From contig CAVPTW010000018.1 of the NCBI GenBank assembly GCA_963708735.1, positions 1,672 through 65,671 of the forward strand: a stretch of DNA of 64,000 bases, written 5' to 3'. The position numbers and the translations under genes were made by a program. Shown one piece after another: positions 23,925-64,000 of this stretch. Each line of letters starts with the position of its first letter. The stretch's first letter is position 1. This DNA comes from an uncultured Gammaproteobacteria bacterium. GTDB taxonomy: Bacteria > Pseudomonadota > Gammaproteobacteria > Pseudomonadales > Porticoccaceae. The notes under the pieces were generated by a model. The model made no database searches and was not told the origin of the DNA. It was given only the letters and a program-made list of their open reading frames with translations.

Positions 23925-23941
23925 GCCGCGAATTGGTCATA

Positions 23942-24763: not shown

Positions 24764-24781
24764 TGGAATTCTGCTTTGTCA

Positions 24782-33200: not shown

Positions 33201-33229
33201 AAATAGACATGTCAACAAGGAAAGCAATC

Positions 33230-33295
33230 ATGATTGGTATTCTGGTCGCAGTGGCACTGGTTTTCACCATTATTTATCTGGCACAAAGAACCTGA
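33230..33295 (+). CDS. Candidate 21-aa hydrophobic peptide (not in the ORF track)
   Basis: My own translation gives MIGILVAVALVFTIIYLAQRT, one TM-length helix. AAGGAAAG lies 6-13 nt upstream of the ATG. The ORF sits between a terminator and the ABC transporter genes. Confidence 0.35.
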   Translation: MIGILVAVALVFTIIYLAQRT

Positions 33296-33319
33296 ACCAG
33301 CGGTATAGCTTCCGGTCCA

Positions 33320-35178: not shown

Positions 35179-35185
35179 CGGTCCG

Positions 35186-35404
35186 TCAAACCAGGCCCAC
35201 CGCCTGCACCGCCTCCGGACTCAGCCCGTCTGCGCCCCGACGCGCGTGTTCCTTGAGCTTCGCCGTCATGACTGGCGTCCAGAAGCGCCTCATGTGCGCG
35301 GCGGCGTTTTCGATGCGGGCCTCGGGAGTGAGGGCGGGCACATTGGCGACGATCTGGTTGGCCATCTTGACCAGGTGTTCCACGGACGACTCTGACACCT
35401 TCAT
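35186..35404 (-). CDS. fdsD: Formate dehydrogenase delta subunit
   Basis: The family core LVKMANQI....RRFWTP.M is present in this 72-aa product. It is the last gene of the fds cluster. Confidence 0.75.
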   Translation of the reverse strand: MKVSESSVEHLVKMANQIVANVPALTPEARIENAAAHMRRFWTPVMTAKLKEHARRGADGLSPEAVQAVGLV

Positions 35405-46700: not shown

Positions 46701-47627
46701 GCCGAGCCAGCCGGTGATATCGGCCTTGAGATCGCGCAGCGGGCTCGCCGTGGGCGCTGCCCCCAGCGGCACACTGTCGGTGGCGACCCGCCCGACGATC
46801 TCGGCTCGGCCGTCCCCGGCTGCGGTCAACCATATCTCGGCATCTACGGGCGCCGCGACTGGCACCAGCCGCTGCACCCAATCCGGCGTCAGACCGCGCA
46901 ATATCACCCCGAGCGATCCGGCGAGATTGAGCCGCGACAGTTTCAGGTAGCTGCTGCCCTCCAGATCGCGCCAGTCCGCAGCGTTCGCGCCGACGCCGCG
47001 CCACTCCGCGAGGGCCGTCGCAAACTCTTGCCCGGCAATTTCCAGAGTAGCGCCGGCGCGATGAAAATCACCGCTGTTTTCCAGCAGCAGATTGTTCGCC
47101 GCGATCAGCTCACTGGCGCCGGAGCGGAAATGGAGGGTGATTTCAGCCCGCGCAACGCGCGTCCGCCGACTTGCCAGCAGCATGTCGATCACCTGCCTCG
47201 CCGCGCCCTGCGTATTGGGTGCGCCGCTATCCAGGGCCCAGCCGGTGGGCGTTTCCGTGAGACGGATCTGCAAACGGGCGAGCGACAGGTCGGACCAGAC
47301 CGGCCGGCGGGCGAACAGACTGTGGAACAGATCAACCTCTGCGTCCAGGGCATCCATCACCAGAAACGGCGGCTGGCCAGATGCAGCGGCCACACGCACT
47401 GATCCCGCCCATAAATGCGGCGACAACCGGGTCCAGGCGCCGTTCAGTTGCCGGGCCTCGGCGACGGCGCCCAGACGTTCGGACAGGACGGAGTCGAGCC
47501 GCGGTTGCAGATGGTCCAGCCGCGGCAGCAACTCCCGGCCCACCCCCACCAGCAGGGCATAAGCGATGACGAGCAGCGCCGAGCATGCCCAGACCCAACG
47601 CACCAGACGTCCCGCCATGCCCGCCAT
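43791..47627 (-). CDS. yhdP: YhdP-family (AsmA-like) envelope lipid-transport protein
   Basis: It is a 1278-aa protein with an N-terminal TM anchor. It lies immediately downstream of rng on the minus strand, the conserved position for yhdP. Confidence 0.8.
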   Translation of the reverse strand: MAGMAGRLVRWVWACSALLVIAYALLVGVGRELLPRLDHLQPRLDSVLSERLGAVAEARQLNGAWTRLSPHLWAGSVRVAAASGQPPFLVMDALDAEVDLFHSLFARRPVWSDLSLARLQIRLTETPTGWALDSGAPNTQGAARQVIDMLLASRRTRVARAEITLHFRSGASELIAANNLLLENSGDFHRAGATLEIAGQEFATALAEWRGVGANAADWRDLEGSSYLKLSRLNLAGSLGVILRGLTPDWVQRLVPVAAPVDAEIWLTAAGDGRAEIVGRVATDSVPLGAAPTASPLRDLKADITGWLGPDDWGLRLQQLAFTWNGRDIAPLTLEFRQRLGAASPQFSLAADHLDLGTLNAMALASDLLPKPAAEVIAALNPTGRLAYPRVDIDLGRPGNVTGFRATLENVAVASWHGSPALTGVSGTLAATGHDGVLTLDGKTELAILFPEAYDHFSRVGQVRGRVDFALNDDYSALTIQGAPLDIDASGDAGSIRAAFSLYQPLVHGAHGELWLSAGIRNSDAAYARQYIPRVLEPELLQWLDRSLGDMRVVEGGFIWRGTIAKEAGPHRAIEVYARVAEAAIDYDPGWPGLTDVNAYVVVDNTDVSGRAEAATIAGVPVRDIRFRTIEVAGNSKPLLAVTATAATEVSRALGVLAQSPLRSRIEPLRDWQAEGPVAVALDLRIPLSKQSTGERYRVAAKLADAALTHRASGLKFERIRGDLTFSEADGLTANGLTARFWGQELQATVHGDLHGQTWIESRGQVAVEDLPVWPDWLRGTVAGDTDYSVSYRIPGDGKPSQLVLESSLQGVRSSLPAPFAKVNPDAPLTLTTRLTFGAKNIDVDTHLGTDLAARARFGNGRIERAEVALGGVAAELPSTPGLSVRGHLGALDVDAWRARLPAGAGPRDFMSAPAPRLSLQIDRLQAMGLQLDGIRVAGAVADGAWRLHGVSATAAGDLVVPLDGSPVGLHLDHLVLPKPDFAGDQGVLTQFDPRSLPDLDFSTQGLRVGERELGHLGFALRRVPDGIQASALRGEITGLAVGSGEGSSTLLWRRLGEHDQTRFESVLESDDLAGVLRAWGLPGAIESAHSTFTTVLEWDDKPWKFSARVLRGDVGIQILKGSFHRTSGAASSVAMKLIGLINFDTWLRRLRLDFSDLFASGVAFDAVKTTLTFDTGTLIFANPVKVDLPSGRMRLEGRANLVDETIDAHLVATLPVGTNLPWIAALAGGLPAAAGVYLTSRVFDRQVDKISSLGYRVTGPWEDPHIEVERIFSDSAK

Positions 47628-47687
47628 GGTTACTGCTGCGCGGGCAACTGCGGCGGGACGCGTTGGCGGCAGCGGCGTCCCGCCAGG

Positions 47688-49169
47688 TCAGAGCGGCACA
47701 ATGTCGAATTGCTCCTGCGAATAAAGGCTCTCCACCCGGAATTCGATCGGCCGCTTGATGAAAGCCTCGAGATCGGCAACATCGGTGGAGTTCTCGGAGA
47801 GCAGGCGGTCGATCACGCTGTGCGCGGCCATCACGCGAATTTTCTGGCACTCGAACGTCCGTGCTTCACGCAGAATCTCGCGGAATATCTCGAAGGTGAC
47901 GGTCTCGGGCGACTTCATGTAGCCCCTGCCGTTACAGACACCACAGGGCTCGCAGAGTTGCTGCTGCAGGTTCTCGTGGGTGCGCTTGCGGGTCATTTCC
48001 ACCAGGCCGAGCTGGGATACGCCGGAAATCGTGAGTTTGGCGCGATCCGTGGCGAGCGCGTTCTCCAGGGCGCGCAACACCTGGCGGCGGTGTTCGGGAT
48101 CCTGCATATCGATGAAGTCGAGGATGATGATGCCGCCCAGGTTGCGCAGGCGGATCTGGCGGGCGATGGCGCCCGCCGCCTCGACATTGGTCTTGAAGAT
48201 GGTCTGTTCGAGGTTGTGACGACCGGTGTAGGAGCCGGTGTTGACGTCGATGGTCGTCATCGCCTCGTTCTGATCGATGACCAGATAGCCGCCCGATTTG
48301 AGGTCCACGCGCCGCTCCAGCGCGCGCGATATTTCCTCTTCGACGCCGTACAGCGAAAACAGCGGGCGCTCGCCCCGGTAGCGCTCGATCAGGTCCCGGA
48401 CTTCGGAATTGAAGTAGGCAGTGAAGCGCCCGAGCAGGTCGAATACCTCGTCGGAATCCACCCGGATACGGTCGATGCCTTCGGGATTTAGATCGCGCAA
48501 GGTGCGCAGGGTCAGCGGCAGGTCTTCGTACAGACAGCCAACGGTCTCGCTGGAAGCGATCTTGTCCTTGACGTAGGCCCAGAGCCGGTGGAGAAACGCG
48601 ACTTCCGCGCTCAACTCCTCGCGGGTTGCGCCTTCGGCGACGGTGCGGATGATGTAGCCGCTGGGTTCCTCGCACACTTCCTGCCCGGCGATCGCCAGTT
48701 CGAGCGCCTGCCGCAGGCGCTCGCGCTCGGCTTCGTCCTCGATCCGCTGCGAAATGCCGATGTGATCGGTCTTGGGCATGAACACCAGCAAGCGCGAGGA
48801 CACCGAAAGGAAGGTGGTGAGGCGCGGCCCCTTGGTCCCGATGGGGTCTTTCAGCACCTGTACCGCCAGCAGGTCGCCCTCGTGCAGCAGCTCGCGGATA
48901 TCGCGCTCGCCGCTCGCCCAGCGGTCGACCGTCTCGCCGGCGCGCGGGCGCAGGTCGTTGATGTGGATGAAGCCGGCCTTGTCGCGCCCGATATCGATGA
49001 AGGCAGCCTGCATTCCAGGCATCACCCGAACCACCTTGCCCTTGTAGATATTGCCTACCAGGCCGCGTTTTTGCGCGCGCTCGATGCTGATTTCCTGCAG
49101 CACCCCGTTGTCGACCCGGGCGACCCGGGTCTCCGAGGGCGTGATGTTGATCAGTATCTCTCCGCTCAT
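47688..49169 (-). CDS. rng: Ribonuclease G
   Basis: It has an S1-like N-terminus (NIYKGKVVRVMPGMQAAFIDIG) and the RNase E/G catalytic core (GGIIILDFIDM). Confidence 0.93.
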   Translation of the reverse strand: MSGEILINITPSETRVARVDNGVLQEISIERAQKRGLVGNIYKGKVVRVMPGMQAAFIDIGRDKAGFIHINDLRPRAGETVDRWASGERDIRELLHEGDLLAVQVLKDPIGTKGPRLTTFLSVSSRLLVFMPKTDHIGISQRIEDEAERERLRQALELAIAGQEVCEEPSGYIIRTVAEGATREELSAEVAFLHRLWAYVKDKIASSETVGCLYEDLPLTLRTLRDLNPEGIDRIRVDSDEVFDLLGRFTAYFNSEVRDLIERYRGERPLFSLYGVEEEISRALERRVDLKSGGYLVIDQNEAMTTIDVNTGSYTGRHNLEQTIFKTNVEAAGAIARQIRLRNLGGIIILDFIDMQDPEHRRQVLRALENALATDRAKLTISGVSQLGLVEMTRKRTHENLQQQLCEPCGVCNGRGYMKSPETVTFEIFREILREARTFECQKIRVMAAHSVIDRLLSENSTDVADLEAFIKRPIEFRVESLYSQEQFDIVPL

Positions 49170-49822
49170 ATCCGGCTCGGTCCGCAGTCGATGGCAAAAT
49201 CACACAACAGTTTATAGGTTTCAGCCACCGGGAGCCCGACCACGCCGGAGTAGCTGCCCTCGATGCGGGTCACGAAGATACCGCCCATACCCTGTAGTGC
49301 GTAGCCGCCGGCCTTGTCCGCCGGTTCGCCGCTGTGCCAGTAGGATCGGCATTCGGCGGTCGATAACTCACGGAAGGTCACCGCGGTCTCTACCAGGACG
49401 CCGGCCGCGGCCGCGCCCCGGACCAGCGCGACCGCGGTGAGGACCTGATGGGTGCGTCCGGACAATGCCATCAGCATGGCGACCGCCTCGGCTTCACCAG
49501 CGGGTTTGCCGAGCATACGGCCCTCGCACACCACGGTGGTGTCCGCACCCAGCACCGGCAGGACAGCGCCGATGGCGTCGGCGACGGCGCGCGCCTTGGC
49601 AAGCGCCAGGCGCGCCACATAGTCGCGCGGCCGTTCGGCGGGTTTGGGGGTTTCATCGAGATGCGCGGGAACCACGGCGAAGCGGACGCCGATACCCGCC
49701 AGCAGGGCGCTGCGCCGTGGCGAGGCCGACGCCAGCACCAGATCCGCCGCGGCGAGGGCTACCGCGCCGCCCTGTGCGGGGTTCGCAGCCCTGCGGTCGG
49801 CTGCATCACCAGCTCCGGTCAT
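49166..49822 (-). CDS. maf: Maf-family nucleoside triphosphate pyrophosphatase
   Basis: Motifs LVLASASPRRSALL and GKPAGEAEA; the product also contains AYGIQ-like YALQGMGG. The start is uncertain and a later GTG is possible. Confidence 0.85.
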   Translation of the reverse strand: MTGAGDAADRRAANPAQGGAVALAAADLVLASASPRRSALLAGIGVRFAVVPAHLDETPKPAERPRDYVARLALAKARAVADAIGAVLPVLGADTTVVCEGRMLGKPAGEAEAVAMLMALSGRTHQVLTAVALVRGAAAAGVLVETAVTFRELSTAECRSYWHSGEPADKAGGYALQGMGGIFVTRIEGSYSGVVGLPVAETYKLLCDFAIDCGPSRI

Positions 49823-50285
49823 GCAGCCGACCGAGCAAAAATACCAGCAGCGGCCATACCAGCATCGCACCCAGCGCCGAATAGAACTGGGCGAGGTGCA
49901 GGGTGCCACCCCGTTCCAGCAGGCCAAAGGCCACCATGATCAACTGGAACACCAGTGTCAACGCGCCGGCGACCAGGCACTGATAGGGGATGGTGAAATG
50001 ACGCACCCGGTGTTCGAGCCGTTGTGCCAGGTAGGCCGTGACACAGAACGCCAGGGCGTACTCACCGCCCGGAGTGCCGAGCATCAGGTCGAGCAGCAGG
50101 CCGATCAGAAACGCAAACCCCAGCCCATAGAGGACAGGACCAAACAGCACCCAGTACAGGGTTACCAGCAGGACCAGGGGTGGCATCAGATACTGCGTCC
50201 AGGACCGCGCCCCGTTGATGGTCAGCACCAGCGCGACGCACAGCGAGCCGGCAACCTGCAGCACGGCGTTGCCCCTAGCCGCCAT
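49806..50285 (-). CDS. mreD: Rod shape-determining protein MreD
   Basis: It is a 159-aa polytopic membrane protein directly after mreC. Confidence 0.8.
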   Translation of the reverse strand: MAARGNAVLQVAGSLCVALVLTINGARSWTQYLMPPLVLLVTLYWVLFGPVLYGLGFAFLIGLLLDLMLGTPGGEYALAFCVTAYLAQRLEHRVRHFTIPYQCLVAGALTLVFQLIMVAFGLLERGGTLHLAQFYSALGAMLVWPLLVFLLGRLHDRSW

Positions 50286-51120
50286 GGGGGGCCCCGGACG
50301 CTGGCTCGGGAAATACCAGCAGCAGATGCCGACTGCGATCCAGCTCGGCTGCCGGCGTAACGGTGACCTCGACAAATGGCTGTCCGGGCTGGAGCTCGAT
50401 GCTCGCCACCCGACCGACCGGATAGCCGGCGGGAAAGTGACCCCCGAGGCCCGAGGTCAGCAGCAGATCGTTCACTGCAATCTCCAGCGTCGGCTGCACA
50501 TGGCGCAGCCGCAGACGCCGGTAATCCCCGGTGCCCTCCGCGATGGCGCGCATGTCGGTGCCCGCCACCCGCACCGGCACCGCGTGGCGCTCGTCGCTGA
50601 CCAGCAGGACTTCCGCCCGCTCGGCCGACACCTGCACCACCTGGCCCATCAATCCGCCGCTGTCGAGCACCGCCTGACCGATGAAGACCCCATCGTGCTC
50701 GCCGCGATCGATGGTGATCTGATGGCGTCGGGGATCGGGAGAGACCCCGATCAGCTCCGCCATCAGCAGGCGCAACTTGGGCGTTTGGTGTGCATTGAGG
50801 AGGGTGCGCAGCCGGACATTCTCCGCGCCGAGTTCGGCGAGCTGCTGGAGCTGGCCTTTGAGTACCAGCAGCTCGGCCTGCAGCTGCCGGTTTTTGACGG
50901 CGAGTCCGCCCGGACCGGCGACGTTGGTCCGGCTCCATTCCACCATCTGACCGGGCAGATTGCCCAGCCAGGACAGGGGCCGCGCCGCGGTTTCGAGCCA
51001 GGCGCGCGCCGGGGCGAATACCGCGGTGTAGTGGTCGGCCAGGAGGAGTATCACCGCCAGCGTCACCAACAGCAGCATCCGTGGCGCCGATACCGGTTTG
51101 GTGAAAATCTTGTTCTCCAT
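50275..51120 (-). CDS. mreC: Rod shape-determining protein MreC
   Basis: It has an N-terminal TM helix, a coiled coil (LQAELLVLKGQLQQLAEL) and a beta-rich C-terminus. It lies after mreB. Confidence 0.88.
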   Translation of the reverse strand: MENKIFTKPVSAPRMLLLVTLAVILLLADHYTAVFAPARAWLETAARPLSWLGNLPGQMVEWSRTNVAGPGGLAVKNRQLQAELLVLKGQLQQLAELGAENVRLRTLLNAHQTPKLRLLMAELIGVSPDPRRHQITIDRGEHDGVFIGQAVLDSGGLMGQVVQVSAERAEVLLVSDERHAVPVRVAGTDMRAIAEGTGDYRRLRLRHVQPTLEIAVNDLLLTSGLGGHFPAGYPVGRVASIELQPGQPFVEVTVTPAAELDRSRHLLLVFPEPASGAPHGG

Positions 51121-51169
51121 GGCGCTCCGCGACCGTTCGGCGCAGGGACAGAGAGCTCCCCGAACCGGC

Positions 51170-52222
<1,053 letters not shown>

Positions 52223-52367
52223 CTAAGGGGCCCGGCGGCGGTGCCACCGGACGGCGAATAGGGGTGTGACCGCAGACCAATTCCCGCACCGGGATTCAGC
52301 TCGGGAGGTCATCCGTGCTACCCTGTGGGCGTTGCCGGAAGCTCGTGAAACAGGCGGAAACTATAGC

Positions 52368-52655
52368 ATGTCGATCCAACGCGCCGACATCGAAAAATTG
52401 GCCGAGCTGGCGCGTATCCACGTTAATGAGGATACCGTCACTGCCACGACACTCGGCATCAACCGGGTGCTGGAGTTGATCGATCAGCTGCGCGCCGCCG
52501 ACACCACCGGCATCGCCCCCCTGGCCAACCCCCTCGACGCCACCCAGCGCCTGCGCGAGGATGTGGTCTCTGAGTTCGTCGATCGGGATGCACTCCAGGC
52601 CGTCGCCCCGGCGGTCGAGGGCGGACTCTACCTGGTGCCCAAAGTCGTCGAGTGA
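52368..52655 (+). CDS. gatC: Asp/Glu-tRNA amidotransferase subunit C
   Basis: The product starts [17 protein letters not shown], is 95 aa long, and precedes gatA. Confidence 0.9.
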
Positions 52656-52713
52656 GCGTGCGCACGCCGCCAGCGCTGGCGGCACCCCGCAGCCCTGTAC
52701 CGGACCCTGTTCA

Positions 52714-54180
52714 ATGCATGACCTGACCCTAGCCCAGATGTGCCACGGCCTGGCGCGCCGGGACTTTTCCAGTGCCGAACTCACGCGTCATCTGCTGACC
52801 CGCGTCAAGGCGGCCAATCCGCACTACAACGCCTTCATTACCATCGGCGAAGAACGGGCGCTGGCCCAGGCCGCCGCCGCCGACCGGCGCCGCGCGGCGG
52901 GGGATGCGCCGGCACTGTGCGGCCTGCCCATTGCCCACAAGGATATTTTCTGCACCCGGGGTCTGCGCACCAGCTGCGGCTCGCGGATGCTCGACAACTT
53001 CGTGCCGCCCTACGACGCCACCGTGGTCGAGCGCTTTGCCGGCGTCGGTGCCGTGGTACTGGGCAAGACCAACATGGACGAGTTCGCCATGGGCTCGTCC
53101 AACGAGACCAGCTACTACGGTCCGGTCAAAAATCCCTGGGCGATCGACTGCGTCCCGGGCGGCTCCTCCGGCGGCTCGGCGGCGGCCTTGGCGGCGCGTC
53201 TGGTGCCGGGCGCCACCGCCTCGGACACCGGCGGATCCATCCGCCAGCCGGCGGCGCTGTGCGGCGTCACCGGACTCAAGCCCACCTACGGTCGCGTATC
53301 CCGCTGGGGCATGATCGCGTTTGCTTCCAGTCTCGACCAGGCCGGCCCCATGGCCCGCAGCGCCGAAGACGTGGCGCTGCTGCTCCAGGTCATGGCGGGC
53401 TTCGACGAGCGGGACTCCACCTGCCTCGACCGCCCCGTGCCGGATTACTGCGCGACCCTGGAGCAACCCCTGGCCGGACTGCGCATCGGCGTGCCGGAGG
53501 AATATTTCGGCGCCGGCCTCAACCCCGGCACCGAGCGCGCGGTACGCGAGGCGCTCGCCGAATTCGTGCGCCAGGGCGCCCGTCTGGTGGCCATCAGCCT
53601 GCCCCATTCCGGACTCGCAGTGCCCGCCTACTATGTGATCGCGCCCGCCGAAGCCTCGGCCAACCTGTCGCGCTTCGACGGCGTGCGCTACGGCCACCGC
53701 TGTGCGGACCCGGTCGATCTGCGCGACCTCTACATGCGCACCCGGGAAGAGGGCTTCGGCGACGAGGTCAAACGCCGCATCCTGATCGGTACCTACTGCC
53801 TGTCCGCCGGCTACTACGACGCCTACTACAACAAGGCGCAGCAGGTACGGCGACTGATTCGGCAGGATTTTCTCGACGCCTTCGCGAACGTCGACCTGAT
53901 CCTGGGCCCCACCTGCCCCAACCCGGCCTTTGCGTTCGGCGCCAAGGGTGACGATCCGGTGGCCATGTATCTCGAGGACATCTACACCATCGCTGCCAAC
54001 CTCGCCGGGCTGCCGGCACTGTCGGTGCCCTGCGGTCTGGTGGATGCCAAGCCCGTGGGCCTGCAGATCATCGGCAACTACTTCGACGAGGCGCGCATGC
54101 TGAACGCCGCCCATCGCTACCAGTTGGCGACCGGCTGGCATCAACTGGCGCCGCCCGCGCTGGCGGAGGCCGCCGCATGA
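52714..54180 (+). CDS. gatA: Asp/Glu-tRNA amidotransferase subunit A
   Basis: The amidase signature [13 protein letters not shown] and the motif [12 protein letters not shown] are present. Confidence 0.95.
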
Positions 54181-55619
54181 GCTGGGAAACCGTGATCGGA
54201 CTCGAAGTCCACCTCCAGCTCGCCACCCGCTCCAAGCTGTTCTCCGGCGCCGCGACCGCGTTCGGCGCCGCGCCCAACACCCAGGCCTGCGCCATCGACC
54301 TGGCGCTGCCCGGTACCTTGCCGCTGCTGAACCGGGCTGCGGTCGAAATGGCGATCCGCTTCGGGCTCGCGGTCGATGCCGAGATCAATCCGGTGTCGGT
54401 GTTCGAGCGCAAGAACTACTTCTATCCGGACCTGCCCAAGGGCTACCAGACCACCCAGCTCGCGCATCCCATCGTGGGGCCGGGCCATCTCGACATCGAG
54501 CTCGCCGACGGGCGCGAGAAGCGCATCCGCATCCACCACGCCCACCTGGAAGAGGACGCCGGCAAGTCGCTGCACGAGGACTTCCACGGCCTGTCGGGGA
54601 TCGACCTCAACCGTGCCGGCACGCCGCTGATCGAGATCGTCACCGAGCCGGACCTGCGCAGCGCCGAGGAAGCCGTCGCGTTCGCGAAGAAACTCCACGC
54701 CATCGTTACCGCGCTCGGGATCAGCGACGGCGATATGTCCCAGGGCTCGATGCGCTTCGATGTCAACGTCTCGGTGCGCCGCCCGGGCGAACCCCTGGGC
54801 ACCCGCACCGAGACCAAGAACCTCAACTCGTTCCGGTTCATGGAGCGCGCCATCGCCAAGGAGGTCGCGCGCCAGATCGGCGTTCTGGAGGACGGCGGCC
54901 GGGTGATCCAGGAAACCCGCCTCTACGACGGCGACACCGACAGCGCCCGCGCCATGCGGAGCAAGGAAGAGGCCAACGATTACCGCTACTTTCCCTGCCC
55001 GGACCTGTTGCCGGTGCAGGTCGAGCCGGCCCTGATCGAACGGCTGCGCGCCACCCAGCCGGAGCTGCCGGAAGCGCGCCGGGCGCGCTTCGTCACCGAG
55101 TACGGACTGTCCGACTACGACGCCGGTCAGCTCGCCGCCGACACGCCCACCGCGCACTACTTCGAGGCGGCGGCCAAGGCATCCGGCGATCCCAAGCTGG
55201 CCGCCAACTGGCTGATGGGCGAGATTGCCGCGCGCCTCAACAGCACCGAGACGGTCATCGCCGCCTGCCCGGTGAGCCCGGCCCAGCTCGGCGGCTTGCT
55301 GCAACGGATTCTCGACCGCACCATCTCCAACGCCATTGCGCGCCAGGTGTTCGAGGCGCTCTGGAACGGCGCCAGCGACGCCGACACCGTGATCGCGGCC
55401 AAGGGGCTGCAACAGGTCTCCGACAGCGGCGTCATCGCCGCCCTGGTCGAGCAGGTACTGGCGGCCAACCCCAAACAGGTGGCCGACTACCGCGCCGCCG
55501 CGGACGACAAGAAAGCCAAGATGCTCGGCTTTTTCGTCGGTCAGGTCATGAAAGCCTCGGGCGGCAAGGTCAATCCCCAGCAGCTCAACGAACTGCTCGC
55601 CACCCAGCTCAACGGATAA
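54177..55619 (+). CDS. gatB: Asp/Glu-tRNA amidotransferase subunit B
   Basis: Motifs [27 protein letters not shown] and HLEEDAGK. Confidence 0.96.
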
Positions 55620-55635
55620 TGCAGAGGACATCGCC

Positions 55636-55926
55636 ATGGCGCTGAAAAAAGACAAGGTGCAGGTCATCGGCGAAGTCTTCGACGCGGCGCGGCTGCGCAG
55701 CTTCCTCGACTATCAACCGCCCGCCGGCGTCGACCCCGACTACCATGTGCTGGAGAAAGCCTACCGGGGCATGGGTGCCGAGAATTTTGCGGACTTCCTG
55801 GCGCTGTTCATCGCCGCCGGCCGCAACCCGCACGCCACCAATCCCGCCGGACAGACCCTGGCCGAGGTGATCCGGAACCAGCGCCACGCCGAACCCTATC
55901 TGGCGGCGCTCGAGCGTCTTGCCTGA
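55636..55926 (+). CDS. Conserved hypothetical protein (96 aa) downstream of gatB
   Basis: The frame is open with plausible composition and lies 16 nt after gatB. I do not recognise the family with confidence. Confidence 0.5.
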   Translation: MALKKDKVQVIGEVFDAARLRSFLDYQPPAGVDPDYHVLEKAYRGMGAENFADFLALFIAAGRNPHATNPAGQTLAEVIRNQRHAEPYLAALERLA

Positions 55927-55985
55927 GCCGCGCGCCGCCGGCCGCTTCCCCATCCTGAAACCCGCAACTCACTGAGGAATCCACC

Positions 55986-58070
<2,085 letters not shown>

Positions 58071-58170
58071 CTTTTTTGCGGCCCGCAACAACGCCACGCC
58101 GGCCGGTGACCGTCAGCCTCGCCTGACGGCCCAGCGGTGCCGGCAGGCGTTGTTGGCGTAGGAGCGCGTA

Positions 58171-61100
58171 ATGCCCGAAAAAGAAGCCACCGCCCGCATC
58201 AAGATCAACCGGCTGCTGGAAGCGGCCGGCTGGCGGTTCTTCGCTGACGGCGCGCTGCCGGCCAATATCAGGCTTGAGCCCGGCGTCGCGCTCAAATCCC
58301 ACGATCTCGACGCGCTGGGCAACGACTTCGATAAAACGAGCAAGGGCTTCGTCGATTTCCTGCTGCTGGATGCCAAGGGCTTTCCGCTGCTGGTGCTGGA
58401 GGCCAAGGCCGAAACCAAAAATCCGCTGGCCGGCAAGGAGCAGGCGCGCAAATACGCCCGCGCGCAGAACTGCCGCTTCGTCATCCTTTCCAACGGCAAC
58501 CTGCATTACTTCTGGGATCTGGAGCGCGGCAATCCCCATGTCATCACCGCCTTTCCCACCCCGGAGTCGGTGGTCGGCTACCAGAAGGTCACGCCCAACC
58601 CGGCGCGGCTGACGGACGAAAAAGTCGCTGACGACTACATCGTCCTCACGCAGCGCCCGACTTACGCTCTTGATGCCGGCTGGAAGAGCGCGGCTGAGCG
58701 CCCGGCCTACATCCAGGCCAACAAGCTGCGTTTCCTGCGGCCCTACCAGCTCCAGGCCATCCATGCCCTGCAACGGGCGGTCGGCGAGGGCAGGGACCGC
58801 TTCCTGTTCGAGATGGCCACCGGCACCGGCAAGACGCTCACCGCCGCCGCCATCATCAAGCTGTACCTGCGCTCCGGCAACGCCCGGCGGGTGTTGTTTC
58901 TGGTCGATCGCCTCGAACTCGAAGACCAGGCCAAAAAGGCCTTTGCGGGCCTGTTGTCTGCCGACTTCCAGACCGTCATCTACAAGGAAAACCGCGACGA
59001 CTGGCGCCGCGCCGAGATCGTCGTCACCACTGTGCAGTCGCTGCTGTTCAACAACAAATACCAGCGCCTGTTCTCGCCCACCGATTTCGATCTGGTGATC
59101 TCGGACGAGGCGCACCGCTCCATCGGCGGCAACGCCCGCGCCGTGTTCGATTACTTCGTCGGCGACAAGCTGGGGCTCACCGCCACGCCGCGCGACTACC
59201 TGCGCCGCTTCGACAGCGCCAAACCGGGCAGCCGCGATCCGCGCGAGGCCGAACGCCGCCTGCTGCTGGACACCTACCGCACCTTCGGCTGCGAATCCGG
59301 CCAGCCGACCTTCCGCTACTCGCTGCTCGATGGCGTGAAGGACGGCTATCTGATCAACCCCACCGTGGTGGACGCCCGTACCGACGTCACCACCGAACTG
59401 CTTTCGGAAGAGGGCTTCGTCGTCACCGTCACCGACGACACCGGCGAGGACCAGCAAGAGGCCTTCAAGCAGCGCGAGTTCGAGAAGCGCTTTTTCTCGG
59501 ATGCCACCAACCAGCTTTTCTGCAAGACCTTTCTGGAACACGCCCTGCGCGACCCGGTCAGCGGGGAGGTCGGCAAGTCCATCGTGTTTGCCGTCAGCCA
59601 GCACCACGCCGCCAAGCTGGCGCAGATCCTCAACCAGATGGCCGACCGGATGTTCCCCGGCAAGTACCAGTCCGACTTCGCCGTGCAGGTCACGTCGCAG
59701 ATTCAGGACGCCCAGCAGTTCACCATCAACTTTGCCAACAACAACCTGCTCGGCGCCGGCAATTTCATCTCCGCCTACAAGACCAGCAAGGCGCGGGTGT
59801 GCGTCACCGTGGGCATGATGACCACCGGCTACGACTGCACGGACATCCTGAACCTGGGCCTGCTGCGGCCGATCTTCTCGCCGACGGATTTCATCCAGAT
59901 CAAGGGTCGTGGCACCCGCAAGCACGACTTTCGCGAGCAACTGTTCGACGACGCCCTCAAGGCCGGCGTCACCCGGCCCGAGAAAACCGCCTTCAAGCTG
60001 TTCGACTTTTTTGCCAACTGCGAATACTTCGAGACCGAGTTCAATTACGACGAAGTGCTGAAGCTGCCGCGTCCCCGCATGCACAGCGCCGACGACGGCC
60101 GCGATACCGGCGCGATGGCAGTACGACGGCAACTACGAGCACCTGGGCAGCGACATCCTGGCCGGCATCAAGGAAGAGACCATCGGCCACGACGGCATGA
60201 AGATCGACCGCATGTTCTTCGCGCGCTTCGAAGACGCCGTGCGCGAGAACGCCGACATCGTCGCGGCCGTGGAGGCCGGCCAGTGGGATCACGTCATCGA
60301 CTACCTGAGCGCCCGGCCTACATCCAGGCCAACAAGCTGCGCTTCCTGCGGCCCTACCAGCTCCAGGCCATCCATGCCCTGCAACGGGCGGTCGGCGAGG
60401 GCAGGGACCGCTTCCTGTTCGAGATGGCCACCGGCACCGGCAAGACCCTCACCGCCGCCGCCATCATCAAGCTGTACCTGCGCTCCGGCAACGCCCGGCG
60501 GGTGCTGTTTCTGGTCGATCGCCTCGAACTCGAAGACCAGGCCAAAAAGGCCTTTGCGGGCCTGTTGTCCGCCGACTTCCAGACCGTCATCTACAAGGAA
60601 AACCGCGACGACTGGCGCCGCGCCGAGATCGTCGTCACCACCGTGCAGTCGCTGCTGTTCAACAACAAATACCAGCGCCTGTTCTCGCCGACCGACTTCG
60701 ATCTGGTGATCTCGGACGAGGCGCACCGCTCCATCGGCGGCAACGCCCGCGCCGTGTTCGATTACTTCGTCGGCGACAAGCTCGGCCTCACCGCCACGCC
60801 GCGCGACTACCTGCGCCGTTTCGACAGCGCCAAGCCGGGCAGCCGCGATCCGCGCGAGGCCGAACGCCGCCTGCTGCTGGACACCTACCGCACCTTCGGC
60901 TGCGAATCCGGCCAGCCGACCTTCCGCTACTCGCTGCTCGATGGCGTGAAGGACGGCTATCTGGTCAACCCCACCGTGGTCGACGCCCGCACCGACGTCA
61001 CCACCGAGCTGCTTTCGGAAGAGGGCTTCATCGTCACGGTCACCGACGACACCGGCGAGGACCAGCAGGAGGCCTTCAAGCAGCGCGAGTTCGAGAAGCG

Positions 61101-62322
61101 CTTTTTCTCCGACGCCACCAACCAGCTTTTCTGCAAGACCTTTCTGGAACACGCCCTGCGCGATCCGGTCAGCGGCGAGATCGGCAAATCCATCGTGTTT
61201 GCCGTCAGCCAGCACCACGCCGCCAAGCTGGCGCAGATCCTCAACCAGATGGCCGACCGGATGTTCCCCGGCAAGTACCAGTCGGACTTCGCCGTGCAGG
61301 TCACGTCGCAGATTCAGGACGCCCAGCAGTTCACCATCAACTTTGCCAACAACAACCTGCTCGGCGCCGGCAATTTCATCCCCGCCTACAAGACCAGCAA
61401 GGCGCGGGTGTGCGTGACCGTGGGCATGATGACCACCGGCTACGACTGCACCGACATCCTGAACCTGGGCCTGCTTCGGCCCATCTTCTCGCCCACCGAT
61501 TTCATCCAGATCAAGGGCCGCGGCACCCGCAAGCACGACTTTCGCGAGCAACTGTTCGACGACGCCCTCAAGGCCGGCGTCACCCGGCCCGAGAAAACCG
61601 CCTTCAAGCTGTTCGACTTTTTTGCCAACTGCGAATACTTCGAGACCGAGTTCAATTACGACGAAGTGCTGAAGCTGCCGCGTCCCCGCATGCACAGCGC
61701 CGACGACGGCCGCGATACCGGCGCGGTGGCGTACGACGGCAACTACGAGCACCTGGGCAGCGACATCCTGGCCGGCATCAAGGAAGAGACCATCGGCCAC
61801 GACGGCATGAAGATCGACCGCATGTTCTTCGCGCGCTTCGAAGACGCCGTGCGCGAGAACGCCGACATCGTCGCGGCCGTGGAGGCCGGGCACTGGGATC
61901 AGGTGATCGACTACGTCAACCGCGAGGTCTTCGACAAGCCCGAGGAGTTCTACAACCTCGACAAGCTGCGCCGGGCCGCCGCCGTGGATCGCCGCCTGAC
62001 CCTGCGCGAGATTCTGGAGAAAATCTTCGGCCTGATCCCGCGCTTCAAGTCCAGGGACGAGTTGCTGGAGGAGGAATTCGCCAAGTTCGTCGCCGACGCC
62101 AAGCCCGGCGAGGCCGCCGCCATGCCGGCCATCAAGACCTACTTCAAGGCCTACGTCAGCAGCGGCCAGATCCGCGACATCATCGACCGCAAGGACTTCA
62201 CCGTTCTGGCCACCCACCCCATGTTCTGCACCCGCGACTTCAAGGCGGTGCCGGCCAGGTACCGCGCCCTCATCCCCGATTACGTCAAGGACTACGTTTC
62301 GCTCAACCAGTTCGCGCCATGA
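58171..62322 (+). CDS. hsdR: Type I restriction endonuclease R subunit (COG4096/EcoEI-like) carrying an internal tandem duplication of the helicase motor
   Basis: The N-terminus is an HSDR_N PD-(D/E)xK nuclease (DFLLLD...LEAK). The SF2 motifs MATGTGKT, SDEAHR, LTATPR and QIKGRGTR each occur twice. The C-terminus is an EcoEI_R_C-like tail. The product is 1383 aa, against 846 aa if one repeat unit is removed. Confidence 0.8.
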   Translation: MPEKEATARIKINRLLEAAGWRFFADGALPANIRLEPGVALKSHDLDALGNDFDKTSKGFVDFLLLDAKGFPLLVLEAKAETKNPLAGKEQARKYARAQNCRFVILSNGNLHYFWDLERGNPHVITAFPTPESVVGYQKVTPNPARLTDEKVADDYIVLTQRPTYALDAGWKSAAERPAYIQANKLRFLRPYQLQAIHALQRAVGEGRDRFLFEMATGTGKTLTAAAIIKLYLRSGNARRVLFLVDRLELEDQAKKAFAGLLSADFQTVIYKENRDDWRRAEIVVTTVQSLLFNNKYQRLFSPTDFDLVISDEAHRSIGGNARAVFDYFVGDKLGLTATPRDYLRRFDSAKPGSRDPREAERRLLLDTYRTFGCESGQPTFRYSLLDGVKDGYLINPTVVDARTDVTTELLSEEGFVVTVTDDTGEDQQEAFKQREFEKRFFSDATNQLFCKTFLEHALRDPVSGEVGKSIVFAVSQHHAAKLAQILNQMADRMFPGKYQSDFAVQVTSQIQDAQQFTINFANNNLLGAGNFISAYKTSKARVCVTVGMMTTGYDCTDILNLGLLRPIFSPTDFIQIKGRGTRKHDFREQLFDDALKAGVTRPEKTAFKLFDFFANCEYFETEFNYDEVLKLPRPRMHSADDGRDTGAMAVRRQLRAPGQRHPGRHQGRDHRPRRHEDRPHVLRALRRRRARERRHRRGRGGRPVGSRHRLPERPAYIQANKLRFLRPYQLQAIHALQRAVGEGRDRFLFEMATGTGKTLTAAAIIKLYLRSGNARRVLFLVDRLELEDQAKKAFAGLLSADFQTVIYKENRDDWRRAEIVVTTVQSLLFNNKYQRLFSPTDFDLVISDEAHRSIGGNARAVFDYFVGDKLGLTATPRDYLRRFDSAKPGSRDPREAERRLLLDTYRTFGCESGQPTFRYSLLDGVKDGYLVNPTVVDARTDVTTELLSEEGFIVTVTDDTGEDQQEAFKQREFEKRFFSDATNQLFCKTFLEHALRDPVSGEIGKSIVFAVSQHHAAKLAQILNQMADRMFPGKYQSDFAVQVTSQIQDAQQFTINFANNNLLGAGNFIPAYKTSKARVCVTVGMMTTGYDCTDILNLGLLRPIFSPTDFIQIKGRGTRKHDFREQLFDDALKAGVTRPEKTAFKLFDFFANCEYFETEFNYDEVLKLPRPRMHSADDGRDTGAVAYDGNYEHLGSDILAGIKEETIGHDGMKIDRMFFARFEDAVRENADIVAAVEAGHWDQVIDYVNREVFDKPEEFYNLDKLRRAAAVDRRLTLREILEKIFGLIPRFKSRDELLEEEFAKFVADAKPGEAAAMPAIKTYFKAYVSSGQIRDIIDRKDFTVLATHPMFCTRDFKAVPARYRALIPDYVKDYVSLNQFAP
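58694..60304 (+). repeat. Tandem duplication unit, copy 1 (1611 nt, contains one extra base at 60120)
   Basis: It starts with CTGAGCGCCCGGCCTACATCC and ends with ATCGACTAC. It is collinear with 60305-61914. Confidence 0.95.
60305..61914 (+). repeat. Tandem duplication unit, copy 2 (1610 nt)
   Basis: It has the same start and end strings as copy 1. The offset from copy 1 is 1611 nt up to 60119 and 1610 nt after it. Confidence 0.95.
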
Positions 62323-62434
62323 AAATGCGGCGGCCGGCGACAGGCGAGGGTGCGGCGCAAGAATCGGGGTCGCGCGGCCACGGCATCCGGCGTAGACTGA
62401 TGTCAACGACATTGATTGAACTTCGGGGGCTGCC

Positions 62435-62656
62435 ATGAGCCAGATTACCGCCCGGCTGCCGGATGAGCTGGTGGCCGAACTGGACCACGCCGCCAGGCAG
62501 CTTCGGCGCACGCGCGCCGAACTGGTCCGCCAGGCCGTCGAATACTATCTGGACGATTTCGAGGACATTTCCCGCGCCATCGAGGTGCTCAGGGACCCCG
62601 CCGATCCGGTGCTCGACTGGGAAAGCGCCAGGCGCGACCTGATCGACCAACCGTGA
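62435..62656 (+). CDS. Ribbon-helix-helix (CopG/RelB-like) antitoxin
   Basis: MSQITARLPDELVAELDHAARQLRRTRAELVRQAVEYYL is an RHH fold. The stop overlaps the toxin start (GTGA). Confidence 0.8.
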   Translation: MSQITARLPDELVAELDHAARQLRRTRAELVRQAVEYYLDDFEDISRAIEVLRDPADPVLDWESARRDLIDQP

Positions 62657-62907
62657 CCTACCGGGTCCACATCAAGCGCAGCGCCGCCAAGGCGCTGCAA
62701 ACCATCGCCCGGGACGAGCGCCTTCGCCTGATCGAGGCCATCGACCGGCTCGCGGACAATCCCGGCGCCGGCAGCGTGCTCAAGGGGGAGTTCTCCGGCC
62801 TGCGCCGCCTGCGGGTCGGCAATTACCGCATCGTCTACGAAGTGCAGGCGCAGCAACTGGTGGTGCTGGTCGTGCGCATCGGGCACCGCCGCGACATCTA
62901 CCGCTGA
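62653..62907 (+). CDS. RelE/ParE-family type II toxin
   Basis: The segment LKGEFSGLRRLRVGNYRIVYEVQAQQLVVLVVRIGHRRDIY is the canonical RelE/ParE C-terminal pattern. The start is GTG. Confidence 0.85.
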   Translation: MTYRVHIKRSAAKALQTIARDERLRLIEAIDRLADNPGAGSVLKGEFSGLRRLRVGNYRIVYEVQAQQLVVLVVRIGHRRDIYR

Positions 62908-63064
62908 ATACCGCCGAAGATCGCAAGCCCTCGGGGCCTGCGCATTGTTGGAAGCGGTGCGCGCCCAGGCGGCCAGGGAAAGCTTCGTGCGATGATTGCA
63001 GGGCGATTCTGACCAGACTAGACTAAGCCAAATCAAACCATAGATAGACCTGCCGAGGTGGCCC

Positions 63065-63313
63065 ATGACGACCCTCAACATGCTTGAAGCCAAGACCAAC
63101 CTGTCCCGCCTGGTGGACGCCATCGAGCGCGGCGCCGAGCGCGAAATCGTCATCGCCCGCAACGGCAAGCCAGCCGCCCGGCTGGTGCCGATGGCCGACA
63201 GCCCGGTTGAGCAGCGCATCGGCGTCGCGCGCGGCCTGTTCGAGGTGCCGGACGACATCGACACCCACAACGCCGAAGTCGCCGGTCTGTTTATCGGCGG
63301 CGCTGCCCGGTGA
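63065..63313 (+). CDS. Phd/YefM-family type II antitoxin
   Basis: The product starts MTTLNMLEAKTNLSRLVDAIERGAEREIVIARNGKPAARLVP. Confidence 0.85.
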   Translation: MTTLNMLEAKTNLSRLVDAIERGAEREIVIARNGKPAARLVPMADSPVEQRIGVARGLFEVPDDIDTHNAEVAGLFIGGAAR

Positions 63314-63323
63314 CTGTCGCCTG

Positions 63324-63710
63324 ATGAATCTGCTGCTGGATACCCACGTCGCGCTGTGGGCCATCGTGGACAGCCCGCGGCTGTCCGATGCGGCGCGGGA
63401 GCTGATTCTCGCGCCGCGCGCGGTAGTCTGGATCAGCGCCGCCACCGTGTGGGAAATCGCCATCAAGCACAGCCTGGCGCGTGGCGACATGCCGGTGTCC
63501 GGCAGTGCAGCCATCGGCTACTTCCGCGCCGCCGGCTACCGCTTTCTGCCTATCGAGCCGGAACACGCCGCCGCAGTGGAAACCCTGCCGCCGCATCATC
63601 AGGATCCCTTCGACCGCCTGCTGATCGCCCAGGCCCAGGTCGAACCCATGCGCCTGCTCAGCCACGACGCCCACCTGGCGCGCTACGGCGAGTTGGTCGT
63701 CCCCGTCTGA
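63324..63710 (+). CDS. vapC: PIN-domain (VapC-family) type II toxin
   Basis: MNLLLDTHVALWAI carries the first acidic residue, WEIAIK the second, and HQDPFDRLLIAQA is the PIN C-terminal motif. Confidence 0.85.
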   Translation: MNLLLDTHVALWAIVDSPRLSDAARELILAPRAVVWISAATVWEIAIKHSLARGDMPVSGSAAIGYFRAAGYRFLPIEPEHAAAVETLPPHHQDPFDRLLIAQAQVEPMRLLSHDAHLARYGELVVPV

Positions 63711-63726
63711 CCACCGCCGAGCATCC

Positions 63727-64000
63727 ATGGCTCGGCGACACAAGCAGAACCCCATGCTCGACACCGCCACCAAACGCCGCATCGACACCGCCCGCGACAT
63801 CCTGGTCGGCAAGGTGCCCGACCCCAAGAGCCAGGTCGAGCAGATCACCATCGCGCTGATCTACAAGTTCATGGACGACATGGACCTTGAGGCCGAGGAG
63901 CTGGGCGGCCACCGCAAGTTCTTTGCCGGCGATTTTGCCCGCTACGGCTGGGCCAGGCTGATGCGCTCAGGTTTAGGCGGCCACGAGACCCTCAACCTCT
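63727..64000 (+). CDS. hsdM: Type I R-M DNA methyltransferase subunit, 3'-partial (runs off the window)
   Basis: My own translation gives MARRHKQNPMLDTATKRRIDTARDILVGKVPDPKSQVEQITIALIYKFMDDMD..., the HsdM N-terminal domain pattern. It is absent from the ORF track because no stop codon falls in the window. Confidence 0.75.
   Translation, partial: MARRHKQNPMLDTATKRRIDTARDILVGKVPDPKSQVEQITIALIYKFMDDMDLEAEELGGHRKFFAGDFARYGWARLMRSGLGGHETLNL

Follow-up and report, generated by a model that had tools for sequence, protein, structure and literature searches.

The gene at 58171..62322 of the window (the whole stretch of 64,000 nucleotides that was analysed) raises the question of how a restriction subunit came to carry its motor segment twice within one uninterrupted open reading frame. 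The sequence-only reading of this DNA had put forward a selected second-site rescue, in which one extra base offsets a duplication of non-triplet length, and had named a sequencing error as another possibility. Here, we set out what the two copies are, where each of them comes from, and which of a natural rearrangement, an assembly artefact and a selected fusion accounts best for the locus.

The gene and its neighbours

The ORF listing, Pfam and a pairwise alignment of the two copies with each other divide the gene into the following parts.

58171..62322, + strand: continuous ORF of 1383 aa (ORF listing and Pfam), a type I-like restriction subunit (HsdR-like) with the motor segment present twice
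58171..58693, + strand: unique 5' part, predicted HsdR N-terminal nuclease-type domain (aa 1-174), X-type, with 1 mismatch against the sister assembly GCA_049663945.1
58694..60304, + strand: copy 1, the 'X' allele, 1611 nt by pairwise alignment, with a complete SF2 motor (aa 175-650) and then a shifted stretch
60304..60305, + strand: junction GACTAC/CTGAGCG, where gene position 2133 is joined to gene position 523 (pairwise alignment)
60305..61914, + strand: copy 2, the 'Y' allele, 1610 nt by pairwise alignment, like the type in the related loci L001 and L084
61915..62322, + strand: unique 3' part, a Y/L001-type C-terminus that differs by 8.3% from its counterpart in the sister X allele

In the 1383-aa ORF, Pfam places ResIII, DEAD and SWI2_SNF2 in two stretches each and HSDR_N(_2) in one. 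The SF2 motor has motifs I to VI; ResIII reaches 255 bits over its two stretches (aa 189-341 and one in copy 2), and the SWI2_SNF2 match of copy 2 lies at aa 729-879. The putative N-terminal PD-(D/E)xK nuclease domain scores close to the Pfam cut-offs, with 26.7 bits for HSDR_N_2 (cut-off 25) and 24.9 for HSDR_N (cut-off 25.1). The best relative of solved structure in the PDB is a type I R subunit, 3H1T, with a match spanning aa 190-594 of the single-copy protein. Domain boundaries were taken from the Pfam and PDB matches; an AlphaFold2 model of the single-copy homologue P0001, built on a 34-sequence alignment, was poor (mean pLDDT 46.8) and was set aside.

The window protein shares with type I R subunits (HsdR; EcoAI/type IB-like; 3H1T) an SF2 ResIII/DEAD motor, preceded by a predicted N-terminal HsdR-type nuclease domain, and its best NCBIfam and PADLOC matches are type I R subunits. 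It differs from them in scoring far under the equivalog cut-offs, and the single-copy relative likewise stays below the curated NCBIfam values, both for the EcoAI/FtnUII equivalog NF046051 (221 against 550) and for TIGR00348 hsdR (45 against 284.55). These scores point to a related but distinct R-subunit family, to which PGAP gives the name 'DEAD/DEAH box helicase family protein'. As family context only, a plasmid search returned single-copy relatives, 73% identical, that are carried by IncF plasmids of E. coli beside an N-6 methylase and a TrlF-like ATPase.

As in type I restriction-modification loci, the gene stands upstream of a type I methylase gene, and the intervening region holds two toxin-antitoxin pairs.

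62435-62656, + strand: RHH antitoxin, between hsdR and the methylase gene
62653-62907, + strand: ParE toxin, between hsdR and the methylase gene
63065-63313, + strand: Phd/YefM antitoxin, of a module missing from L001
~63324-63710, + strand: PIN/VapC toxin, of the same module missing from L001
63754..64000, + strand: first part of the methylase gene, which runs off the end of the window, its DNA 85-90% identical to the stretch after hsdR in relatives

The 82-aa methylase fragment alone gave no Pfam match. In relatives, a fused HsdM-HsdS protein of 838 aa (L002; N6_Mtase and Methylase_S) is encoded directly after hsdR, and this gene, with its conserved start at 63754 in the window, accounts for the adjacent methylase and specificity genes expected beside an hsdR. 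The locus differs from other type I systems in that the partner in its relatives is this single fusion (~838 aa), in that the motor segment is duplicated, and in the two toxin-antitoxin pairs between R and M.

Two alleles, one junction and one extra base

Copies 1 and 2 lie head to tail and are separated by only 39 substitutions and one indel (97.6% identity by pairwise alignment). Judged on that alignment, a 1.6-kb repeat of such identity cannot be a product of chance, and no other large repeat was found in the 64-kb window. The duplication starts at the nuclease/motor boundary (aa 175; Pfam ResIII begins at aa 189). At its end, the junction (21-mer ATCGACTACCTGAGCGCCCGG) shows 0 nt of microhomology, both against the window's own sequence and against L001 and L084 as proxies for the Y allele. 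The allele-diagnostic SNPs nearest to it lie 9 nt before and 37 nt after, the sequence being X-type to 60295 and Y-type from 60342. Base 60306 is T and still X-like, Y-like external alleles having C at this position, so that the switch from X to Y lies somewhere in 60306-60342.

The origin of copy 1 was read from a sister MAG, GCA_049663945.1, in which the X allele of hsdR is single-copy and in frame on contigs L082 and L083. These contigs overlap by exactly 127 nt, which is taken to be the final k-mer size of the assembler. The flanks of the gene are 99.84% identical to this assembly, with differences of 0.13% upstream and 0.46% downstream, as against 8.3% at the hsdR 3' end. Copy 1 agrees with the sister allele at 38 of the 39 sites at which the copies differ. 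At the same sites, the outgroup L001 carries the state of copy 2 in 34 cases, that of copy 1 in three and neither in two (binomial p = 1e-7 for 34 v 3).

The differences between the copies are biased towards synonymous change, with 32 of 39 synonymous and 33 of 39 at codon position 3 when counted in the ancestral frame. In the linker, all four differences are third-position in the ancestral frame, which is not read there, and first-position and amino-acid-changing in the frame that is read. A test for purifying selection after fusion, on the copies and on the linker in the read frame, therefore came out against it. Since copy 1 is the sister X allele and copy 2 is L001-like, the divergence was inherited from two alleles and did not evolve under constraint on the fusion. 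Mosaic hsdR alleles were found across the clade.

The features that bear on the reading frame are given below.

60078..60121, + strand: 44-nt cluster in which lie 4 of the 5 substitutions that distinguish copy 1 from the sister X allele, together with the sole indel between the two (60078, 60105, 60115, +1 nt at 60120, 60121)
60120, + strand: extra base A (equally the G at 60121), the only indel between the copies
60121..60306, + strand: shifted stretch VRRQLRAPG...SRHRLP, 62 codons (651-712) out of the ancestral frame, 24 of them for Arg, with a predicted pI near 12
60197..60709, + strand: ancestral-frame ORF across the junction, reading ...GQWDHVIDY LSARPTS... to a stop at 60707-60709 (ORF listing)

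The arithmetic of the sequence-only reading held up throughout. The frame is lost through the 1610-nt unit (60305-61914) and regained through the extra base at 60120, the sole indel against copy 2, which lies 185 nt before the junction, so that copy 2 is entered in its own frame. The Arg-rich out-of-frame linker, put at about 61 codons, was recovered as codons 651-712 with their 24 Arg, and the ORF at 60197-60709, which passes through ...GQWDHVIDY and runs on to a stop at 60707-60709, is indeed what is read when the extra base is left out. The comparison with the matching position of copy 2, which that reading had called for, gave GCG-TAC, without the extra base. If the base were not real, the product would be an 845-aa protein with a 135-aa out-of-frame tail, ending at 60709.

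At the site itself, copy 1 has GGC-A-GTACGAC and copy 2 has GGCGTACGAC; which base is the 'extra' one is ambiguous, GC(A)GTAC and GCA(G)TAC being equivalent. The codon states are GCA-G-TAC in the window, GCG-TAC in copy 2, GCT-TAC in the sister X allele, ACC-TAC in L001 and ACT-TAC in L086. The extra base falls exactly on a codon that varies among alleles, relatives having GCT, GCG, ACC and ACT. It is the sole indel against the Illumina contigs L082/L083 over the ~16 kb compared, and the sole one inside an identified gene against L001, the others lying at 52658-52700 and at 58074, just beyond the stop of a fadB-like gene. Within the 44-nt cluster, positions 60078, 60105 and 60121 have the copy-2 state, and two features, A at 60115 and the extra base, are private; the cluster is bordered by 167 and 159 nt without differences between the copies. 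The shifted stretch supplants a helical-domain block, YEHLG...MKIDRMFF...WD.VIDY, that is conserved in the 34-sequence alignment.

From 58698 up to the junction, no stop interrupts the frame in which the linker is read, and the unshifted one remains open as far as 60709. With alternate frames open over ~2 kb, any +1 insertion in ~2 kb of the 4.15-kb gene yields an uninterrupted ORF. The continuous ORF is far less improbable than it appears.

Natural rearrangement or assembly artefact

The explanation that we prefer, tentatively and at somewhat less than even odds, is a recent and private rearrangement, in a Porticoccaceae-type genome, of two pre-existing alleles, with a fortuitous restoration of the frame, leaving a disrupted or decaying hsdR in a population that often loses this gene. 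In this event, an X-type body, from the 5' end to position 2133, would have been joined without homology to a Y-type body running from position 523 through the 3' end. The likeliest route would pair illegitimate joining with homologous exchange among co-occurring strains. This might have taken the form of one single import, one-sided as in homology-facilitated illegitimate recombination, or else of a tandem duplication of X on X, with a Y allele then taking the place of the second copy and the 3' end. Exchange of the latter kind, which makes alleles mosaic, is seen throughout the clade. The junction would then have broken the frame, and a private extra base in a hypervariable inter-domain codon, within the 44-nt patch, would merely happen to have restored it, the 1383-aa ORF being called as a consequence.

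Homology-facilitated illegitimate recombination is known, as are partial duplications by one-sided or single-crossover integration (PMC3240628). The window resembles these in that the sequence type switches at, or at most 37 nt from, the non-homologous joint, and in that homology is available on the other side, its flanks on both sides being 99.5-99.9% identical to the sister strain. It resembles them also in the net outcome, a partial tandem duplication of the target gene. It differs in that the window's joint has no microhomology, which is reported to be unusual at junctions made by homology-facilitated illegitimate recombination (de Vries and Wackernagel 2002). An origin of the junction within X sequence is consistent with the X-like T at 60306. 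As the simplest route, Campbell-type integration of a circularised fragment was discarded, since it would call for donor sequence on each side of the junction or else for a crossover in the first 37 nt.

A close rival, and a quite possible one, is that the structure is an artefact of assembly and consensus, in a metagenome contig from a population with both X-type and Y-type hsdR alleles. The assembler or scaffolder would have placed the two haplotypes in tandem over an unmerged 1.6-kb overlap, and the extra base would be a polishing error at a strain-heterogeneous position. In a weaker version, the duplication is real and only the extra base is a consensus error, so that the true product stops at 60709. 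The copies map one-to-one onto two natural alleles, as this account would have it, and the duplication lies at most ~9 kb from a contig end (67,507-nt contig, 64,000-nt window). The Illumina assembly of the sister breaks exactly at 60121/60122, a SNP beside the extra base, which suggests co-occurring variants there. The extra base itself sits on a polymorphic codon, in a patch with copy-2 states, where mis-placement of reads between copies or strains is to be expected. The fusion protein has no NCBI accession, which means that the record carries no annotation or that the gene was not taken up as a protein; frameshifted fragments of the gene family also occur in other ENA contigs.

Several features of the contig argue against an artefact. 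The junction lies off the boundaries of allele divergence (9 and 37 nt away), and no pair of single-copy alleles supplies a sequence that spans it. Graph-path chimerism of two single-copy alleles was rejected as its source, because without a k-mer shared at the junction and away from an allele boundary such a path could not yield it. Neither the X nor the Y allele has the extra base or the A at 60115, so that simple mixing of alleles does not generate them, and base 60306 (T) differs from the known Y-like alleles. The contig is otherwise clean, with 60120 as its sole indel against L082/L083 (~16 kb) and no other large repeat in 64 kb. Compared with false (haplotypic) duplications, the window shows the same placement of two diverged versions of a segment next to each other in one contig, at a site near the contig end and in a population with several alleles; it differs in that the breakpoints are off the divergence boundaries, in that there is no gap or run of N, and in that the rest of the contig is unaffected.

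The rearrangement that we favour has points against it in turn. The junction and the extra base occur in one contig only, and a mixed-strain assembly with a false duplication would likewise show two haplotypes side by side. In a cell proficient for recombination, a 97.6%-identical tandem repeat of 1.6 kb would be expected to be unstable. It is also improbable that a +1 should fall by chance in the right zone, with odds of a few percent by a rough neutral estimate that was not computed from the data. What counts for a real event is natural rearrangement at the same locus in relatives, namely deletions, the L084 lesion and the Immundisolibacter fusion.

If the junction is real, inter-strain recombination at a restriction-modification locus would have been caught here in nature at an intermediate stage. 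The non-homologous joining of two alleles, within a clade whose hsdR is mosaic and repeatedly deleted, would illustrate the turnover of defence genes, still as a single private event. If it is an artefact, the locus serves as a warning that strain-mixed metagenome contigs may combine a two-haplotype duplication with a single-base consensus error and so mimic a 'rescued' fusion ORF. In that case it would also caution that, unless an outgroup and a sister allele are compared, a synonymous bias in the divergence of repeat copies should not be taken for selection on a fusion.

Proposed selection on the fusion and the fate of hsdR

An improbable alternative to both is that the duplication is real, that the compensatory +1 insertion was selected, and that a double-motor HsdR is functional and useful. 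Its layout would be nuclease, motor 1, basic disordered linker, motor 2, helical domain and C-terminus. The restored frame is what such an account predicts, and the insertion occupies a hypervariable stretch between domains, immediately ahead of the conserved helical block, so placed that motor 1 keeps all helicase motifs and only an incomplete sub-domain becomes linker. The start of the duplication at the nuclease/motor boundary (aa 175) would suit it as well. The bolder form of the idea, slightly less probable again, is a natural double-motor type I restriction subunit. Illegitimate recombination between alleles would have added a second complete SF2 translocase module, the +1 would have turned a leftover, incomplete helical sub-domain into a disordered poly-Arg tether, and a putative 155-kDa protein would be made and would restrict with the fused M-S.

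Against a selected fusion stands, firstly, its absence elsewhere. Genome loci with relatives numbered ~590, and the best 80 of these all consisted of one ~2.5-kb match over the ~845-aa query. The best 120 proteins were all 840-866 aa long, in a database clustered at 90% in which the fusion itself sits under a 303-aa representative, so that the absence of long proteins is weaker evidence there. The sole 1383-aa member listed in two 90% clusters was the window's own protein (15 of the 27 members of cluster 5 being listed), and the cluster look-up placed it on the window's own 67.5-kb contig only; an exact look-up of the fusion protein found nothing.

Similarly, JGI metagenome contigs gave 0 matches to the junction DNA and 0 to a gapped pattern built to detect close alleles around the extra base. 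When the Arg-rich linker with its flanks and the unshifted junction peptide were searched against proteins, the matches covered only the flanks (at most 29% coverage) or out-of-frame fragments of other genes (at most 32%). The fusion architecture thus appears to be conserved nowhere among the relatives searched, and no independent relative with it was recovered.

Secondly, the apparent purifying selection between the copies reflects allelic history, and the four linker differences are all first-position and amino-acid-changing in the read frame. The target for restoring the frame is ~2 kb, and, were restriction under selection, RecA-mediated collapse of the repeat should bring the gene back at a much higher rate than a +1 insertion would. 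Thirdly, hsdR is dispensable in relatives, being often missing or decayed: it is precisely missing in L085, L088, L089 and L090, and it carries an internal 1.6-kb deletion and a premature stop in L084. The locus also rearranges, Immundisolibacter proteins showing an hsdR-hsdM deletion fusion. With the differences inherited from alleles, a target of ~2 kb, a unique architecture and loss of hsdR in relatives, the proposed selected rescue found no support, and nothing indicates a part for selection in shaping the locus.

An in-situ tandem duplication of one allele, with the copies diverging by 2.4% in place, would fit the head-to-tail order and the high identity, but is very improbable and was rejected on the L001 outgroup states and the GCA_049663945.1 allele, given extremely asymmetric branch lengths (34 against 3), 'derived' states of copy 1 that are all found in an independent single-copy allele, and substitutions that respect the ancestral frame even where it is not read.

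The private rearrangement of two alleles, as preferred here, places the gene beside the decaying R-minus, M-plus loci of its relatives, which have at the same chromosomal site either a precise deletion of hsdR or an internal deletion with a premature stop. The window gene is also structurally disrupted, and differs from these in that its lesion is a duplication and its ORF is formally continuous.

Repeat structure and reading frame of hsdR

The restriction-subunit gene hsdR was listed as one uninterrupted ORF, within which self-alignment of the gene revealed a head-to-tail repeat:

58171-62322, + strand: single ORF of 1383 aa (hsdR)
58694-60304, + strand: copy 1, 1611 nt
60305-61914, + strand: copy 2, 1610 nt
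60121-60306, + strand: linker (codons 651-712), out of the ancestral frame when the extra base at 60120 is present

The copies differed by 39 substitutions and one indel, the extra base at 60120, where copy 1 reads GGCAGTACGAC and copy 2 reads GGCGTACGAC. When this base was removed, the frame passed from ...GQWDHVIDY into LSARPTS... and stopped at 60707-60709; when it was present, copy 2 was entered in frame after a linker of 62 residues, 24 of them Arg (pI ~12). Alignment and translation thus confirmed what the sequence-only reading had described (the repeat, the extra base, the Arg-rich linker and a stop at 60709 without that base), and its frame arithmetic was right.

Pfam placed in the 1383-aa ORF one HsdR-type N-terminal nuclease domain (aa 55-120) and two stretches each of ResIII, DEAD and SWI2_SNF2, with the best ResIII stretch at aa 189-341 and the best SWI2_SNF2 stretch at aa 729-879, in copy 2. 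By NCBIfam and PADLOC, the protein was nearest to the EcoAI/type IB group of type I restriction subunits, and its nearest relative of solved structure was 3H1T. The curated scores of the EcoAI and TIGR00348 families were not reached, and it was therefore filed under a related R-subunit family rather than as an equivalog member. The hsdR product is a predicted type I-like R subunit, encoded within a type I-like operon.

The restored frame has to be seen in a genome of ~65% G+C with long alternate frames. That read by the linker was open from 58698 to the junction, and the unshifted frame up to 60709. A +1 insertion anywhere in ~2 kb of the 4.15-kb gene yields a single uninterrupted ORF; by a rough estimate, an indel in hsdR would bring about such a 'rescue' in about a quarter of cases.

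Allelic identity of the two copies

A search of one-genome-per-species contigs returned ~590 loci with relatives of hsdR, the best 80 of which each gave one match of ~2.5 kb spanning the ~845-aa query. The closest relative among these 80, a Porticoccaceae MAG (L001), was syntenic with the window over 52171-62908 and carried the gene in single copy. We used it as outgroup for polarising the 39 differences between the copies: its state was that of copy 2 at 34 sites, that of copy 1 at three and that of neither at two. The 34 versus 3 split (binomial p = 1e-7) ruled out symmetric in-place divergence of the copies. Mismatches to L001 numbered 47 in copy 2 versus 80 in copy 1.

Exact-sequence look-up of two neighbouring products, the fadB-like protein and ParE, led to a sister assembly, GCA_049663945.1, with contigs L082 and L083. 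These overlap by exactly 127 nt, from which we infer the final k-mer size of the assembler, and when joined they gave a single-copy, in-frame hsdR of 846 aa (the X allele). L082 was 99.84% identical to window 45986-60248, and copy 1 agreed with the X allele at 38 of the 39 sites that tell the copies apart. The 3' end of hsdR, however, differed from that of the X allele by 8.3%, against only 0.13% for the upstream flank and 0.46% for the downstream flank in the comparison with the sister MAG. Copy 2 and this 3' end of hsdR are a second ('Y') allele type, and the instructive point is that the two repeat copies are different alleles. Further proteins from the 90% cluster of this gene product showed that the hsdR alleles of the clade are mosaics, in which two C-terminal types recombine freely with middle types.

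Most of the differences between the copies were synonymous (32/39) and at codon position 3 (33/39). All four linker differences were so counted, in the ancestral frame, which the linker does not read; in the frame actually read, the same four are first-position and amino-acid-changing. Because the copies are two pre-existing alleles, their synonymous bias is inherited allelic history, and the selection that the sequence-only reading had suggested is unsupported.

Origin of the junction and the extra base

We tentatively consider the repeat a real, private inter-allelic rearrangement of hsdR. The 120 best-scoring proteins were 840-866 aa long, and among the matches listed the 1383-aa protein, which has no NCBI protein accession, was confined to the 67.5-kb contig from which the window comes. 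JGI metagenome contigs gave no match to the junction 21-mer or to a gapped pattern covering the site of the extra base, and a search of 5.8 billion cluster representatives returned no counterpart of the Arg-rich linker or of the junction peptide in the unshifted frame.

An assembly or consensus artefact is only a little less likely. A false duplication likewise shows two haplotypes side by side, the population demonstrably carries several alleles, the contig ends at most ~9 kb from the site, a tandem repeat is expected to be unstable in vivo, and the codon under the extra base is heterogeneous. Against this, the junction shows no homology and is not placed at an allele-divergence boundary, the remainder of the window contig is clean, and base 60306 is T (X-like) in the window versus C in external Y-like alleles. 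A de Bruijn path chimera of two single-copy alleles was ruled out, as it cannot produce the junction.

If the rearrangement is real, the junction may have formed in an X context, which fits the T at 60306, copy 2 and the 3' end then being replaced by allelic sequence. Microhomology is usual at joints of homology-facilitated illegitimate recombination. The window junction has none, unlike such joints, but shares with them a switch of sequence type at a non-homologous joint. Equally possible would be a one-sided import in a single step, as described under that name (PMC3240628).

Given a real rearrangement, the chances that the extra base is also real are roughly even. Copy 1 differed from the X allele at only five substitution sites and the indel; one substitution lay at 58715 and all others within 44 nt (60078, 60105, 60115 and 60121, with the extra base at 60120). 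Copy 1 has the copy-2 state at 60078, 60105 and 60121, while the A at 60115 and the extra base were seen only on the window's contig. This patch is bordered by 167 and 159 nt of identity between the copies. The codon concerned, situated in a hypervariable inter-domain stretch, was polymorphic:

Codon at the extra base
Sister X allele: GCT
Copy 2: GCG
L001: ACC
L086 (a related locus): ACT
Window copy 1: GCA-G

The identity of the 'extra' base is ambiguous within GCA-G, and it is at a site where reads of different strains or copies would disagree. It was the sole indel relative to the Illumina contigs L082 and L083 (~16 kb compared), others relative to L001 being at 52658-52700 and at 58074, just beyond the fadB-like stop; the window contig is therefore not noisy in general.

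The locus in relatives and its surroundings

Structural variants were sought on contigs carrying the same downstream RHH antitoxin. In four independent metagenome contigs or assemblies of related strains (L085, L088, L089, L090), the whole of hsdR (window 58150-62328) was precisely absent: fadB-like position 58149 abuts 62329, shortly upstream of the RHH antitoxin, the joint falling between short repeats that resemble each other (..GGCAGGCG / ..GCGACAGGCG). Thus hsdR alone is polymorphic for presence or absence. At positions 1-520 of L084 (JGI 3300057101), what remains of hsdR is Y-like and contains a premature stop (VIY*); it has also lost ~1.6 kb internally, so that DDWRRA runs into LIPSYVKDY across 7 nt of microhomology (CCGCGCC). 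RHH-ParE and a Methylase_S gene come next. Furthermore, three truncated hsdR products (P0127, P0163 and P0171, from Immundisolibacter and JGI) ended in ...QPTFRYSLPATAGPG. Their tail PATAGPG is the 5' end of the methylase gene out of frame (compared with window 63701-63960, frame 2), which points to a deletion running from the middle of hsdR into that gene in the genomes concerned.

In these populations hsdR is therefore dispensable and often rearranged, which makes a real structural lesion plausible and selection for a long hsdR ORF less so. Although the frame is restored, a selected functional fusion is very unlikely, and a double-motor HsdR that is expressed and active, with poly-Arg as its tether, is about as unlikely. 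The locus is a private structural lesion or an artefact in a dispensable restriction gene, an event of an ordinary kind.

Several homologues on ENA contigs of up to 452 kb (P0125, P0132, P0136, P0183-P0185) were annotated in pieces whose beginnings or ends are out of frame. Within these assemblies, the gene family therefore often shows frameshifts, whether genuine or due to consensus errors.

The R subunit recurred at 75-85% protein identity across very distant phyla, including Nitrospirota, Chloroflexota, Planctomycetota, Bacillota and Verrucomicrobiota (loci L002-L080), and on a plasmid (L081, NZ_CP034592.1), which implies very recent and wide horizontal spread. The same identity range applies to its partner where this was examined, at L002 (fused M-S) and L081 (methylase); on E. 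coli IncF plasmids the R subunit adjoins a TrlF-like ATPase. Within type I R-M systems, the partner gene in relatives of this hsdR encodes a fused HsdM-HsdS; the window differs from these relatives in that its methylase gene, starting at 63754, stands behind an RHH-ParE pair and then a Phd-PIN pair. These toxin-antitoxin cassettes are inserted within the R-M operon. The VapBC-like Phd-PIN module, situated at 62909-63750 between the ParE and methylase genes, was absent from the syntenic L001, which passes from 62908 almost directly to 63751 (window coordinates).

Six of the 16 upstream SNPs relative to L082 fell within 52 nt (57779-57830) at the 3' end of the fadB-like gene, which looks like a small recombination patch beside the R-M locus. 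A further stretch, at ~20000-36000, had 55-59% G+C versus 65-68% elsewhere and probably represents an island that carries a gene disrupted by an IS. It contained:

21357-22568, - strand: 404-aa ORF with a fatty-acid desaturase domain (aa 14-229) and an ISL3 transposase fragment (aa 283-396)

Two paralogous Crp/FNR-type regulator genes (23178-23924 and 31661-32365, - strand) are the source of a 130-nt direct repeat of 72% identity (23287-23416 and 31734-31863).
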